Virus record (IMG/VR): IMGVR_UViG_2913147268_000002
Source of the DNA: a virus
Lineage: Duplodnaviria > Heunggongvirae > Uroviricota > Caudoviricetes
Reading direction: 5' to 3' (one strand)
Length of the DNA: 48,006 bases
Of this stretch, positions 5,549-17,719 are shown piece by piece. The notes under the pieces are model-generated. The model did not search any database. It was given only the letters and a program-made list of their open reading frames with translations, and had not been told where the DNA came from. A program made the position numbers and the translations under genes. The stretch's first letter is position 1. Each line of letters opens with the position of its first letter.

Positions 5549-6171
5549 TCCCCAGCGAGCCGAATCCTGACTGGCCCCCGTGGACTCGCTGAATGTCCCC
5601 TCCGTGCCCTGGGTGAATGCCGAACCACCACGACAGCATGGTACCAGCAGGATCCCCGCGTTATTAGGGATATACGGAAGCAGTTTTTTGGCAATATGTA
5701 AGCCCTGTCCGACACAGCCGTACTGCCCTTATACCCGGCATCTTTCGGACGATACGGCCCCTGATAATGTTCCGCGAACAGAATGCGCTCTGTGGCGGGG
5801 AAATACGCCCGCAGGCTTTCCTTGTTGCATCCGTTCCAGCGTCCGGACGGCTTCGCCCAGATAATATGGTTCAGCACACTGAAGCGTTCACGCATCATGA
5901 TTTCGATATCAGATGCCAGGCGATGACCACAGAACAGGTAAAGACTTCCGGCAGGTTTCAGCACCCGCCAGAACTGCGCCAGACACTGGTCCAGCCACTT
6001 CAGGTAATCATCGTCGCCCTTCCACTGGTTATCCCAGCCCTCAGGCTTCACTTTAAAGTACGGCGGGTCCGTGACTATCAGGTCAACAGAATTTTCGGGT
6101 AACGACCGGATAAATTCCAGGCAGTCGGCGTTGATTAACTCACAACTGGATATTTTTACAGTATTAGCCAT
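5437..6171 (-). pseudogene. N6-adenine DNA methyltransferase, 3'-truncated (homology about 5720-6171)
   Basis: N-terminal 150 aa carry the motif IV signature LIVTDPPYF and IIWAKP typical of beta-class N6-adenine methylases. No FxGxG AdoMet motif follows; the rest of the ORF is low-complexity read-through. Confidence 0.6.
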
Positions 6172-6300
6172 AGATCAATAAGCACTTCTCTGATAGGCTC
6201 ATACCGCTTTTGCGCAAAGCAGATGGGCCTGAGGTTTGCTTGTGACCCCAACGCATGAGCAGATGGCTGGAATAAAATCAAAGCAATAAGCAGTGTCGTG

Positions 6301-10840: not shown

Positions 10841-11161
10841 TTAGTAGGGGAGCTCATCGGTATCTGGCGTGTATTCGATGCAAAGTAACTGCTGGATTTT
10901 GTCATCGATAGCAGCAATACGCTGTTGGGCGTCGGCGACTGTTTTCTGTTTTTGTTCACGCAGTTGCTCGACCTGTAAACCGATGATGTCGATTGGCTCG
11001 GGCTGGTTAACGGTAATTTCAATTTCGCGGCTTTCCAGAAGGATGTACCTGTCTGGAAAATTTTTTGACATATCAACAGTCGCAACAAGCAGCTTTTCGT
11101 GGCTGAAAGTTGAAGTTGCATAATGAATAAAGAGTGTTACTGGGATGGTGCGCGCTTCCAT
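10841..11161 (-). CDS. Hypothetical protein (106 aa), first gene of the leftward operon
   Basis: Strong RBS AAGGAG 7 nt before the ATG. Confidence 0.5.
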   Translation of the reverse strand: MEARTIPVTLFIHYATSTFSHEKLLVATVDMSKNFPDRYILLESREIEITVNQPEPIDIIGLQVEQLREQKQKTVADAQQRIAAIDDKIQQLLCIEYTPDTDELPY

Positions 11162-11600
11162 AGCGACTCCTTGGTAATGTATACTCAGAGCCGATCAGCG
11201 AATATTGATCAGCTTCCATAGCGTCAGTGTCGTTGGTCTTTCCTCATCACAAGTTTGGTCACTTGTGATAAATCCGAATGGTTTGGTCGCCGTTCGGGGT
11301 AACTGGCCCGCCTTGTGCGGGTCTTTTGCTATCTAAAGGGTGCCGGTTACGTTTCCGGCGTCGTTATGTTTCCATTACGACCGTACAGGGCTGGTCAGGC
11401 CCGGGCTGGTCTTTCCTGTTTTGAGCTGGTCAGGCTCATGGTCAACGCTGGTCAGGCGTGGTACTTCCTCCGGTCTTTCCCTGGTGTCACGCTGCGGGTT
11501 TGGCCTCTCCTGTTGGGGACTCAGGCACAGCGATAAAACCTGGCTGTGTGAAAAAATGGCCCATCGTGCGGACTGGGCAAAGACTAAACACAGCAAATTG

Positions 11601-11690
11601 ATGATGGGCGCCCGGAATCGAACCGGGTAACGGGCAGGGAGTTCCCGTTAAACACCTGTTCACCACAACCGGGAGCGCACTCCGCCATTT
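11601..11690 (-). other. tRNA-like fragment (T-arm CCCGG-TTCGATT-CCGGG) inside a structured non-coding leader
   Basis: Minus strand reads ...CCCGGTTCGATTCCGGGCGCCCATCA. A canonical 7-nt T-loop with a perfect 5-bp stem, but no acceptor stem can be paired with the 5' side. Confidence 0.3.
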
Positions 11691-12029
11691 CAAAATTTAA
11701 CGACAAAGCTCAAAGTTGAGTCGATGAAGTGCGCTCTCGTGTTGTAGCCAGGACTCTTCCCTGGTGGTCACACCGTATCGCCTTGATGGTGAATCAATCG
11801 CTCATACCTGGCTGTGGCTTGCACATTCCGGCTACCTGCTATGGAGACAACGCGTTAAGGCTCCGCTTCCATCCAGACCGCTTCGACACATGTGCCATAT
11901 GCCGGTGAAGTCTTTCCCTCTGTCACCGTGTTGGCGCCGACGCGCAAAATTTGGTGCCGTCTTTCCGGCTGTCAGAACGTGTTTCTGAACAACTGCCGCT
12001 GGGTAAGCGTTGTTGATGAAAGTGACTTT

Positions 12030-12080
12030 ACAATTTGTATTTGTAATGGTCAATGTGTTTTTAAAAAATAATTTGTAGTG
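12030..12080 (-). promoter_or_regulatory. Candidate OL/PL operator-promoter region
   Basis: ATTTGTA-type half-sites (atttgtatttgtaatgg, aatttgtagtg) just beyond the repressor 3' end, matching those in the cI-cro intergenic region. Confidence 0.35.
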
Positions 12081-12171
12081 AGGGGCAAAAAAATATTCAC
12101 TGTGTAAAGGTGTTTTTGTGTTAGGGGAAAGTTGCATGCCAGCAGCGGCTGGCCTGGAAATTTGAACTGAA

Positions 12172-12585
12172 CTATTTTGTCTGGTTTTTGGCTTCAAGTA
12201 GTTCTTTTAGCAGTAGATCGAAGTGCTCTCTTTTTTCTTTTAGCTCATTGATTAATTTATTTTTTTCGCTCTCAGGCAGTCCTCTGAATAGTTGCAGTAG
12301 AGCCTGTTCTTGCGGGGTTAGTTCTTGATTGTAATTACCCGGGTGTAGTGTGGATTCATCCAAATATTCCCCTTCATTCATGAAGAAAAAATGAACAGGG
12401 TATCCGGTCACTTTTGCTAGCTTGTCTAATTTATCTTTTCTTGGAGTTACCCCATTACACCATGCCTGAACTGATTGAGCCGTAACCCCAATATGGCGAG
12501 CTAACTCAGATTGAGACCAGCCTAAGTCTTTTAGAATCCGTTGTAGTCGGCTAGCAAAAGCCATGTTTTTCGTTTTTGTGTTCAT
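12172..12585 (-). CDS. Phage repressor, HTH XRE family (RacR/cI-like), no S24 peptidase domain
   Basis: HTH at LGWSQSELARHIGVTAQSVQAW; short helical C-terminus without a Ser-Lys autocleavage domain; divergent from a Cro-like gene. Confidence 0.8.
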   Translation of the reverse strand: MNTKTKNMAFASRLQRILKDLGWSQSELARHIGVTAQSVQAWCNGVTPRKDKLDKLAKVTGYPVHFFFMNEGEYLDESTLHPGNYNQELTPQEQALLQLFRGLPESEKNKLINELKEKREHFDLLLKELLEAKNQTK

Positions 12586-12619
12586 ACCGTAAGGATACAA
12601 GGTTTAATTGTAGGGAGCA

Positions 12620-12662
12620 TTGCAAATATAATTTGTAATTACAGTTATTGTTTGTAATGATG
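12620..12662. promoter_or_regulatory. Candidate OR operators / divergent promoters
   Basis: Perfect 10-bp palindrome TGTAATTACA at 12634-12643 plus further TTTGTAAT repeats between the divergent repressor and cro-like genes. Confidence 0.45.
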
Positions 12663-12683: not shown

Positions 12684-12914
12684 ATGGATAAACAACTGCA
12701 AGACAAAATTCTTTCCGTAATGAGTCAATCCGAGTTAGGGCGGCGATTAGGGAAAAAACCACAAACGGTAAGCCTCTGGTTCAAAGGACGGGTTCCCGGT
12801 GAAGAGGTTTTGCGCACATCTGAAGCTCTTGAATGGCGCGTGACCCCTCATGATCTTAGACCGGATCTTTACCCAAACCCAGATGACAGCTTGCCTAAAA
12901 CGGAAGCAGCTTAA
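12684..12914 (+). CDS. Cro-like HTH regulator (YdaS-like)
   Basis: Start at ATG 12684 preceded by AAGGAG; HTH-like LGRRLGKKPQTVSLWFKG; position divergent from the repressor. Confidence 0.7.
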   Translation: MDKQLQDKILSVMSQSELGRRLGKKPQTVSLWFKGRVPGEEVLRTSEALEWRVTPHDLRPDLYPNPDDSLPKTEAA

Positions 12915-12972: not shown

Positions 12973-13449
12973 ATGGAAAACCAAGAGGAATTACAAAAAG
13001 AGATTTTGACCTGGGCGGCAAGGGCAGGGCAGGAACTCGTCACGATTGAAATCTGCCGGGCCTGGTTCAGTCAGGGACGCAATGATGAGTTGAGACTACA
13101 TGAATTTGAGGACGCGGACGGCAACGTGGACTGGAGAGCCATCAACAACAATCGGCAGAAAATCTTTCGCTGGTTACGTGGCGAGACAACGGCGGCGCGC
13201 CGAAAAACTCAGGTGCTGGCCAGTGTGATGAAAGCCGTGCTACCCGCAGAACGGCGGGCACGTCTGGAGTCGCCGGGCGATCCCGTTTTGCTGGCAACGC
13301 TGGCGGCAAAAGAAGGGGTGGAAGCGATTAACGCTGTACATCTCCACTTCGCGCCAGAGTTAACTATTCAGGAAATTGACGAAGCAATAGCGGCGCTGGT
13401 AGCGACGCGAGGAGCAGTGATACGCACTGCGCAAGACCACCATGCATGA
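12973..13449 (+). CDS. YdaT-like / CII-like regulatory protein (putative)
   Basis: 158 aa directly after the cro-like gene, as in Rac-type immunity regions; assignment by position and size. Confidence 0.5.
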   Translation: MENQEELQKEILTWAARAGQELVTIEICRAWFSQGRNDELRLHEFEDADGNVDWRAINNNRQKIFRWLRGETTAARRKTQVLASVMKAVLPAERRARLESPGDPVLLATLAAKEGVEAINAVHLHFAPELTIQEIDEAIAALVATRGAVIRTAQDHHA

Positions 13450-13488
13450 GCGCCTGACCAGCGTTTAACTTATACCGAGGAAAGACCG

Positions 13489-13713
13489 ATGTTAAGACAT
13501 ATTGACCGCATTACCTGGCGTAACGGCTGGCACCTGAATGGACGCCCGGCACATGTTGCAGAGATCCGCCCCATATTCGATGGCCGCGTCGCAGCTGCAC
13601 GTTCTGTATGGGAAAAGTACGAAGAAGAAAAAGCGAAACTGCGTGAGCAAAATCTCTCTGGCGCTGCCTATGAGGCTGGCTGTCGCGTTCTCTCAGAGGC
13701 TTTGGGCATATGA
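13489..13713 (+). CDS. Hypothetical protein (74 aa)
   Basis: Preceded by the conserved element cgcctgaccagcg...ccgaggaaagaccgATG. Confidence 0.4.
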   Translation: MLRHIDRITWRNGWHLNGRPAHVAEIRPIFDGRVAAARSVWEKYEEEKAKLREQNLSGAAYEAGCRVLSEALGI

Positions 13714-15870: not shown

Positions 15871-15908
15871 CCACGCCTGACCAGCGTGAAATAACCGAGG
15901 AAAGACCA

Positions 15909-16319
15909 ATGACCACCACTCCAGGCAAATTAGAGTACCCGTCGGACAAAGGACACATAGACGACGGTAAAAACTATCTCGACGTCATTTTGTGGAATAT
16001 GAACGTCGGGCCACGTGCGCGCACTCGCGCGGTTTTTGTGCCAAGACCTAAAGCAGGCAATTTTTCAACCCCTGCTAAGCCTGCCCGTCAGGCATCCGTA
16101 GCCGCAGCGCCAGCAGTGAAACGTAAGGGCAAAACGCACACCGGGATCGCGATTCGCAGAAATGGTGAGCGGCAAGTGAAACTCCACGAAACAGCGACAA
16201 CCTGGTGTGCCTCACCGCATGAAACTTACGACAAGATAACCGGGCAGCGCATTGGCGCGCCTGGTCGCTGCCGCCTGCTGCTGAGTTCCATCACTCCGAT
16301 AGCAAAGAAAGGGGCGTGA
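15909..16319 (+). CDS. Hypothetical protein (136 aa)
   Basis: Preceded by the same conserved element (cgcctgaccagcg...ccgaggaaagaccaATG); composition Arg/Pro-rich, so uncertain. Confidence 0.35.
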   Translation: MTTTPGKLEYPSDKGHIDDGKNYLDVILWNMNVGPRARTRAVFVPRPKAGNFSTPAKPARQASVAAAPAVKRKGKTHTGIAIRRNGERQVKLHETATTWCASPHETYDKITGQRIGAPGRCRLLLSSITPIAKKGA

Positions 16320-17495: not shown

Positions 17496-17719
17496 ATTGA
17501 CTTAGAAAAAGTCCGGGGCTATAGTTTCCGCGCAGCCGCAAAATCGGTTGCCGGGATTGGCGTCCCGGATATCTAAGTGACGCATAGCCGCGTTAGCGGT
17601 TTTTTTATGTGTTAGGCACGGCCACATTCGCATTATGGTGGGCTGTGTGGGGGCTTCTGTGGAAGCGCCGGGTTCACTTAGCCGGTTACGCCAACCCTGC
17701 ACAGCTCACCACCAGATGA

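Follow-up and report, generated by a model that had tools for sequence, protein, structure and literature searches.

The T4 species 1 and 2 RNAs are stable non-tRNA RNAs encoded in a phage tRNA cluster, and GOLLD and ROOL are often found beside tRNA genes. The latter two are large phage-associated RNAs (10.1101/2024.12.08.627333). The put RNAs of phage HK022 are ~70 nt long, consist of two stem-loops and are located after both PL and PR (PMC9378689), and phage mEp021 has a three-nut layout, nutL, nutR1 and nutR2 (PMC11893012). In lambda 6S and StxS (PMC7547250), a promoter-proximal terminator downstream of a late promoter under Q control yields a short RNA product, and read-through expresses the genes that follow. 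The subject of the current study is a 0.86 kb stretch free of genes, referred to as the leader (positions 11162-12030), in the 48,006-nucleotide viral DNA IMGVR_UViG_2913147268_000002, the whole of which is called the window. The source of the window is a temperate E. coli prophage. The leader directly follows a PL-like promoter, and sequence comparisons indicate that it is a working RNA region, not an empty gap. Its main feature is a conserved, structured RNA domain of ~165 nt, designated the core (11740-11907, minus strand), which was missed in an earlier note made from the window sequence alone.

The structure of the core, proposed on an alignment of 29 representatives, comprises helices P1, P2, P3, P5 and P6, as well as two possible pairings of loops with downstream segments, PK1 and PK2. 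A covariance model, R1, was built from the same 29 sequences, one of which is that of the window; the R1 score of the window sequence, 141.3 bits over model positions 1-164, is therefore that of a sequence on which the model was built. It was the sole strong match in the R1 scan of the window, and no second copy was found in the rightward operon. In the alignment of the 29 representatives, 97.6% of the cells form pairs and 13 pairs change on both sides; with the partners shifted by 1-3 columns, pairing falls to 28-42%. When 91 distinct sequences were fitted to R1, 95.6% of the cells paired, versus at most 54% for shifted partners, and 13 of the 25 pairs changed on both sides. Many G-U pairs in the core are invariant and would become A-C mismatches on the opposite strand, so that the sense strand of the core is the minus strand of the window. 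The earlier note had suggested an element acting as RNA on the minus-strand transcript from PL, a suggestion that the comparative evidence supports.

The unpaired segments of the core are near-invariant, and a block of 22 nt is identical among the P1-like, epsilon15-like and lambdoid representatives. A variable helix within the core differs in length between family members, and no open reading frame (ORF) is conserved across them. Helix P3 and PK1 are invariant and consequently carry no covariation signal, while PK2 shows one compensatory event, C-G to A-U. PK1 would join the loop of helix P1, GCACAU, to AUGUGC; two targeted scans for compensation in this pairing found only AUGUGC to AUAUGC variants in two lineages, none of them compensated and some in decaying copies, and the PK1 pairing must be considered unproven.

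A scan of 11170-12030 with Rfam 15, at the gathering threshold and at E≤10, found no family at threshold and nothing that covered 11740-11907. On the homologous loci, the only Rfam matches were to tRNA and int-alpA, all of them outside the core. No earlier description of the domain was found in searches of open-access text, it is not annotated in any record inspected, and the open-access literature on non-coding RNAs of epsilon15, phiV10 and SPN1S contained nothing relevant. A term search of a study of P1vir in a Δhfq background (10.64898/2025.12.28.696737) found no reference to an RNA between trnI and ban. The Pas sRNAs (10.64898/2026.05.13.724894) were considered as the same element and rejected, being unrelated and located in the late region. 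The core thus belongs to an RNA family outside Rfam that is apparently undescribed.

BLAST identified homologs of the core in unannotated DNA of the epsilon15-like phages SPN1S, PAT1, Tyrion and phiV10, of Klebsiella phages, of P1, P7, D6 and SJ46, and of the lambdoid phage mEp390. A 17-mer from the core retrieved more than 120 IMG/VR contigs. Among species-representative genomes, 18 of the first 100 of the 111 loci containing the 17-mer were true members, the rest being chance matches, and the 11 members for which a source was named were all from Enterobacteriaceae. Of 5426 complete E. coli genomes, 624 contain the family; 479 of the places are chromosomal and 156 are on plasmids, and among the matches listed none of the E. 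coli copies was annotated. The core sequence of E. coli SE11 (NC_011415) is identical to that of the window. The 156 plasmid matches are apparently on P1-like phage-plasmids. Family members also occur in Klebsiella, Citrobacter, Kosakonia and Kluyvera.

Three genomic contexts were distinguished. Approximately 45 of 140 loci are in epsilon15-like phages, with the core in the gap that separates the terminase gene from the portal gene, on the opposite strand. Another 44 or so are located just downstream of, and co-oriented with, a gene for a cI- or LexA-type repressor, with many specificities represented, a PL-leader position like that in the window and mEp390; these repressors have 31-100% identity to three repressor queries. 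About 23 are P1-like. In phage P1 itself (NC_005856, 71010-71250), an unannotated core fills the gap between trnI and ban in the tciA-trnI-ban cluster, which we take to be the C1-controlled ban operon, and ban is presumably preceded by the small ORF tub. In mEp390, with a terminator after the repressor gene and a promoter, TTGACA-17-TACATT, ahead of the core, the core is an early, repressed transcript. In epsilon15 the promoter region neighbouring the core carries an annotated repressor site. The annotation of the non-coding gap there (NC_004775, 2720-2819) comprises a predicted 'RNaseIII' processing site, an IHF site and a repressor site, and the gap holds a degenerate core copy of 36 bits, most of the element that SPN1S and PAT1 have kept having seemingly been lost.

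A strong predicted terminator on the same strand follows the core in 59 of 103 members, either before the first detected ORF or with no ORF detected, and in about 10 members it ends 10-15 nt ahead of a start codon. The core is also closely associated with tRNA genes. At 39 loci a total of 49 tRNAs were predicted within 1.5 kb of the core, every one of them co-oriented with it. In the P1-like phages, tRNA-Ile2(CAU) ends ~15 nt upstream of the core, and in the epsilon15- and ST512-like phages, a long hairpin follows the core and its last bases, GUGG, are the start of tRNA-Arg(UCU). The core therefore resembles T4 species 1 and 2, GOLLD and ROOL in being a structured non-coding RNA that abuts phage tRNA genes and is co-transcribed with them. 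Unlike GOLLD and ROOL, the core is far smaller, has no Rfam match, theirs included, and has its hosts among the Enterobacteriaceae.

The likeness to putL and putR of HK022 concerns position: in both cases a structured RNA is transcribed first from an early promoter of an N-less, lambdoid-type phage, upstream of terminators and early genes. However, the core is a single domain of ~165 nt with at least five helices and has no second strong match in the window, and in P1 and the epsilon15-like phages the family also lies beside tRNAs, outside any setting of leader and terminator. Model R1 had no match in the HK022 immunity region, a comparison run in the R1 direction only.

The setting of the core in the window is an immunity region. 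Three operator-like palindromes (12595-12657) separate a gene for a cI-type repressor (12172-12600, minus strand) from a cro-like gene (12684-12914, plus strand). A fourth copy, the perfect palindrome TTACAA-N7-TTGTAA (12028-12046), overlaps a PL-like sigma-70 promoter, TTGACC-17-TAAAGT (12025-12053, minus strand), found in a scan for promoter-like sites. The OL-like operator that the earlier note had placed upstream of the leader is accordingly present, and promoter and palindrome together have the sequence of a PL/OL arrangement. The first real leftward gene (10841-11173, minus strand, including its Shine-Dalgarno sequence AAGGAG at 11168-11173) starts with the ATG at 11161 and encodes a 106-residue protein of phrog_2479. 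The stretch 11100-12200 was found in 475 of the 5426 complete E. coli genomes, with at least 99% identity in 416. In the SK1144 genome, which has an identical prophage, the integrase end of the prophage (857-1158 of the retrieved segment) abuts the glyW-cysT-leuZ tRNA genes. No tRNA was detected in the equivalent part of the window (5950-6260), so the left flank differs from that in SK1144, and this may reflect another integration site or an origin as a phage or viral contig.

The absence of a convincing ORF between the operator and the first leftward gene, also reported in the earlier note, was upheld. Only short or overlapping ORFs occur in 11162-12030, five on the minus strand (121, 73, 68, 48 and 40 aa) and three on the plus strand, and a PHROGs search with all eight gave zero matches, while the controls, the 106-aa gene and a 74-aa gene at 13489-13713, both matched strongly. 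The RefSeq annotation of the identical SK1144 prophage has nothing between the 106-aa gene and the repressor gene. Protein-coding readings of the leader were rejected on these grounds. Nor was an obvious N-like protein found among the early proteins inspected, in none of which an N-terminal Arg-rich motif was seen, in agreement with the earlier note's statement that an N-like gene is lacking. The 74-aa gene, which is downstream of the first CUGACCA hairpin of the rightward operon, has homologs only in ZF40 and BUCT708, neither of them annotated as an antiterminator.

Compared with shuffled sequence, either half of the leader has only a moderate advantage in folding (z -2.0 and -2.6), and the strong evidence for structure is comparative rather than energetic. 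The most informative relative is the 'Stenotrophomonas phage' BUCT708, which has the gene order of the window and a leader that is 72% identical. The similarity starts at ~12018, just past the predicted transcription start, and the promoter and operator region is different. Compensatory changes preserve at least nine helices over the whole leader. The 5' part (11908-12018, minus strand) contains four hairpins in the centroid fold and the alignment: AACAAC/GUUGUU (12014-11988), CAGAA/UUCUG (11987-11973), CCG-GAAAGA-CGG (11968-11957) and GCGC-GUCG-GCGC (11944-11933). In the last, the GUCG loop is constant and the stem is GCGC/GCGC in the window versus UUCGG/CCGAA in BUCT708. The two other hairpins listed in the earlier note are present at 11247-11268, within 1 nt of the position given there, and at 11306-11323; the pairing of the former and of the leader terminator stem is kept in relatives through compensatory changes, and the sequence itself of the 11306-11323 hairpin and of the inverted-repeat arms is kept in BUCT708. 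Most of the structured elements are thus retained in this relative, some by compensatory change. The BUCT708 leader also has an annotated 37-aa ORF further upstream, which has no counterpart with an ATG in the window.

The middle of the leader has been exchanged in Escherichia whittamii (locus L142) and in a further lineage, L064. At L142 (1770-1880) and L064 (490-560 of the minus-strand segment), two other hairpins replace the region of the leader terminator, and these hairpins themselves covary: CUCUGG-UGAAAA-CCAGAG versus CUUCAG-UGAAAA-CUGAAG, and CCUCUC/GAGAGG versus CCCUC/GAGGG. These replacements suggest that the leader is a mosaic of exchangeable hairpin modules.

The core is followed by a long hairpin in the predicted fold (11660-11748, minus strand). 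Its center is an 11-bp inverted repeat (11671-11681 and 11728-11738) with one mismatch and a 46-nt loop, as described previously, extended by CUACAAC/GUUGUGG. BUCT708 has kept both arms and has a diverged loop. The equivalent hairpin of SPN1S and ST512 has another stem (GAGAGCAUUG.../...CAGUGCUCUC) and the same terminal GUUGUGG.

Next on the transcript is a tRNA-like stub of 63 nt (11597-11664, minus strand) that consists of an acceptor remnant, GUGG...CCAU, an ACGGG/CCCGU arm with a 9-nt loop and a canonical T-arm, CCCGG-UUCGAUU-CCGGG (11611-11627), with a 5-bp stem and a GGTTCGANTCC-type loop. The earlier note had recognized the T-arm and the lack of a pairable acceptor stem; four of seven acceptor pairs can form (GUGG/CCAU), the D-arm is absent with ~10 nt in its place, and the anticodon-like loop has 9 nt rather than 7. 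ARAGORN found no tRNA in the window. Rfam gave no match to tRNA (RF00005) in the T-arm region, the best match in the clan being tRNA-Sec at 19.3 bits versus a threshold of 47 bits (E 0.9), and the best resemblance of the stub to any tRNA in the fetched loci of the core family was weak (z~3). The stub has been retained in E. whittamii and is absent from the BUCT708, mEp390 and L064 lineages, which argues against the T-arm as the key element of the leader. Its slot, between GUUGUGG and UGCUGUGU, is that of tRNA-Arg(UCU) in SPN1S and ST512. Since an intact tRNA-Arg is found in the same slot of relatives, the stub is most readily explained as a lineage-specific tRNA-like element, either decayed or captured, that fills a 'tRNA slot' in an RNA operon.

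The same observations bear on the proposal of the earlier note that the T-arm is the relic attP core of an ancestral phage whose integration site was a tRNA gene. A canonical T-arm followed by an acceptor-like CGCCCAU is what such a relic might look like. However, no E. coli tRNA gene matched the stub even at E≤10, the integrase gene is ~4 kb away, the stub is situated within what appears to be a transcribed RNA unit, and it is a complete, co-oriented tRNA-Arg gene that occupies the slot in the epsilon15-like relatives. The attP proposal is already poorly supported and is very improbable indeed.

The stub is followed by a module resembling the 3' half of the host sRNA RprA (11547-11596, minus strand), composed of UUGCUGUGUUUAGUCUUUGCCC, a terminator stem (11573-11559) and a U6 run (11556-11551). 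It is 84% identical over 50 nt to the 3' end of annotated rprA, which was matched in 5424 of the 5426 E. coli genomes, and the likeness extends to the UUGCUGUGUGUAGUCUUUGCCC stretch, the terminator hairpin and the U-run. In contrast, the 5' two-thirds of RprA, which holds the rpoS-pairing region, is missing, and the module is not a gene in its own right but the 3' terminus of a phage leader of ~470 nt. The BLAST similarity to rprA stops at query nt 9, and the central rpoS/csgD/hdeD stem-loop or seed is not matched. The Rfam RprA model (RF00034) scored the module at 37.4 bits (E 0.016), below the gathering threshold of 70 bits; in the cmscan alignment, the T-arm fills the upstream part of the model at low posterior probability. 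The covariance scans of the leader thus found neither a tRNA nor any Rfam family at threshold and yielded this sub-threshold match instead. Both the conserved 3' segment and the Rho-independent terminator of RprA are present, and the module has what appears, from its sequence, to be the layout of the 3' end of an Hfq-type sRNA. The suggestion in the earlier note that the region is a small RNA was partly right, in that the leader ends in an sRNA-like module with a terminator.

This module is the only terminator-like site on the minus strand of the leader, and the scan detected no minus-strand promoter-like site between it and the first gene. The single-stranded UGCUGUGUGUAGUCUU is conserved, in contrast to the terminator stem, which varies and does so by compensatory changes in BUCT708, L064 and mEp390. 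In a simple motif search, 37 of 119 distinct family members had an RprA-like module on the downstream side of the core, and other coliphages have the module as well. Look-alikes of the RprA 3' half occur in this prophage, BUCT708, mEp390, L064 and phages LLS, Eeyore and Flotzy, a distribution that hints at common origin or mimicry. The role of the 3' half of RprA is not settled in PMC5861431.

The downstream half of the leader contains three hairpins (11388-11459, minus strand) with a CUGACCA loop and the stems ACGC/GCGU, UGAGC/GCUCA and GGGC/GCCC. They correspond to the three GCTGGTCAGG repeats of the earlier note, all of which are present and start at 11390, 11425 and 11447, two of the positions given there, 11391 and 11448, being off by one. 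The 11-mer GCCTGACCAGC occurs five times in the window, compared to an expected 0.63, always on the sense strand of an early operon. In the rightward operon, the hairpin recurs on the plus strand at 13447-13467 and 15872-15888, 10-17 nt before the CCGAGGAAAGACC(R)ATG of real genes. The rightward copies are part of a conserved intercistronic cassette (13447-13491 and 15872-15911) in which a stop codon, the ACGC-CUGACCA-GCGU hairpin, a spacer of 10-17 nt and CCGAGGAAAGACC(R)ATG follow one another. The orthologous sites in BUCT708 have kept the loop and have different stems.

Like lambda boxB and the nut sites of mEp021, the CUGACCA hairpins are small, combine a conserved loop with freely varying stems, and occur in sense orientation in both early operons, with three copies in the left one and two in the right one. 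Unlike lambda, the loop is CUGACCA rather than GAAAA or GACAA, no Arg-rich N-like protein was found among the proteins inspected, the left copies are downstream and not upstream of the leader terminator, and the right copies are close to ribosome-binding sites, a position that would also fit a translational or processing role.

An SD-like module, GGAAAGAC, is located between the hairpins (11409-11416) and again just upstream of them on the transcript (11473-11480). GGAAAGAC is the usual Shine-Dalgarno module of this phage, found 11 times where 1.3 would be expected and in every case on the same strand as the early genes around it; the copies in the leader have no ORF behind them. Closer to the first gene (11229-11272, minus strand), a hairpin with a GACCAA loop (11243-11272) is followed by another SD-like module, GAGGAAAGACCA, and ACG. 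The loop is unchanged in four lineages that have four different stems. BUCT708 has ATG where the window has ACG, so the SD-like module at 11236 can be read as part of a start signal that is mutated in the window.

On the opposite strand, the terminator scan found an intrinsic-terminator-like hairpin, GGCCCGC-CTTGT-GCGGGTC followed by TTTTGC (11305-11332, plus strand), which is highly conserved in BUCT708 and L142. L064 has a different plus-strand terminator in its place, GCCCAC-TTCG-GTGGGC-T6, so that the function has been kept but not the sequence. A further terminator-like hairpin on this strand is located at 11339-11372. The block 11174-11200 is fully conserved and non-coding and contains TATACT (11180-11185), which could be the -10 element of an antisense RNA over the start region of the first leftward gene.

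Elsewhere in the window, a P1/P7-type immI module (17519-17716, plus strand) matched the Rfam families c4-a1b1, isrK and C4 antisense RNA above threshold, and just downstream there is an ORF6N-domain gene, annotated as such in SK1144 and possibly encoding an antirepressor. The presence of this module in addition to cI and cro suggests that the prophage combines a lambda-type immunity with a C4-type RNA switch.

The reading that was favored, with a probability of roughly 0.45, is that the stretch is the untranslated 5' leader of the repressor-controlled PL transcript and forms an RNA-producing unit that also attenuates transcription. It is suggested by the non-coding core and its pairing statistics, the repressor-controlled setting, the co-oriented tRNAs, the sRNA-like 3' end and the terminator before the genes. 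Once the repressor is released, RNA polymerase starting at PL would make the leader RNA first, and some transcripts would stop at the RprA-like terminator, producing an RNA of ~470 nt. This RNA may be trimmed at the tRNA or tRNA-like junction by tRNA-processing nucleases to release a stable, folded core RNA that would bind a conserved host component, as well as a ~50-nt RprA-like sRNA of the Hfq type. The remaining transcripts would read through into the early-left genes, and the leader would thereby serve as an attenuator. A terminator close to the promoter that would yield an RNA product, with read-through expressing the genes, is shared with lambda 6S and StxS; the leader differs from them in that it is ~470 nt long, has multiple domains and depends on the early-left promoter.

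Several points weigh against this interpretation. The anatomy, the conservation, the strand and the predicted terminator were established, and the processing, stability and trans action of the leader RNA, like the other steps of the mechanism, are inferred from them. The tRNA-like stub is dispensable in the close relatives BUCT708, mEp390 and L064. In E. whittamii the stub and the core are intact and the RprA-like terminator is missing, so the attenuator is not universal, and there is no terminator between core and ban in the P1-like copies. Finally, the terminators that end 10-15 nt before start codons fit antitermination in cis at least as well.

Antitermination in cis is the basis of a different and possible, but distinctly less probable, interpretation in which the core is a processive antitermination RNA, following the logic of HK022 put or Bacillus EAR, that would fold on the nascent PL RNA, bind the polymerase that has just made it, allow this polymerase to read through the RprA-like and later terminators and so replace N and nut. 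The core does hold the nutL/putL position: in lambdoid-type immunity regions without N, and across many immunity types, it is the first segment that polymerase reaches from PL, and in the window an intrinsic terminator, with no detected promoter after it, separates the core from the genes; more than half of the members examined have such a terminator (the 59 of 103 noted above). The near-invariant unpaired segments moreover suggest a conserved host partner such as RNA polymerase. An element of this kind would sit less easily with one copy per phage and none in the rightward operon, with a length more than twice that of the two-stem-loop put RNAs (PMC9378689), or with the failure of R1 to find anything in the HK022 immunity region. 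The lack of a terminator before ban in the P1-like phages and the intact core of E. whittamii in a leader whose terminator is missing count against it as well, and the tight association with tRNAs is left unexplained. A sensor resembling a riboswitch, whose folded and possibly pseudoknotted structure would bind a small molecule or a tRNA and set the passage through the downstream terminator, is improbable. The compact fold with multiple helices, the invariant junction nucleotides and the terminator downstream would be appropriate for such a device, but the terminator is far from the core and at no fixed distance (180 to more than 550 nt, at times with a whole tRNA between), no alternative pairing joins the two, some members have no terminator and there is no link to metabolic genes.

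On a more skeptical view, most of the leader is debris of evolution: a tRNA or moron cassette would have been lost and small genes deleted, orphan junctions of hairpin and RBS and a mutated start codon would have been left behind, and spacing would be the only present function. Some of the observations are of this nature: the ACG after the SD-like module at 11236, the 37-aa ORF seen in BUCT708, the cassette of CUGACCA hairpin and GGAAAGACC that normally precedes real genes, the T-arm stub that is not a functional tRNA and the swapping of the leader middle in E. whittamii and L064. The maintenance of at least nine helices by compensatory change, the 22-nt block shared by three phage groups and the near-identity of the leader in hundreds of E. 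coli genomes are difficult to reconcile with debris, which is judged unlikely, and for the core itself covariation already argues against it. An overlooked conventional small protein gene, N-like or otherwise, is already close to refuted and highly improbable. The minus-strand ORFs of 68, 73 and 121 aa have TTG starts, and an Arg/Lys-rich ORF of 19 codons starts within the loop of helix P1; however, apart from the missing PHROG matches and RefSeq annotation, the frames are broken by indels in BUCT708, the start is absent in phage P1 (CUG for AUG) and the substitutions track the RNA pairing. These comparisons indicate that the leader works as RNA and is not decayed coding DNA.

A broader proposal, which we hold tentatively and at somewhat less than even odds, is that the core represents an unrecognized functional RNA class of three unrelated groups of temperate enterobacterial phages, P1 among them, made at the start of the early program. 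It would be either an RNA-only processive antiterminator with no relation to put or a stable RNA that decoys or regulates a conserved host factor, and the RprA 3' half would be shared by descent. If the core RNA is functional, then P1, the epsilon15-like phages and a large set of lambdoid prophages carry an early RNA gene that has been overlooked, and the question becomes how N-less lambdoid phages pass their leader terminators, or which host factor the RNA targets in the first seconds of development. The RprA-like module suggests either a phage look-alike of a host stress sRNA or phage relatives of RprA. Annotators should regard as empty neither the gap between trnI and ban in P1 nor that between the terminase and portal genes in the epsilon15-like phages.

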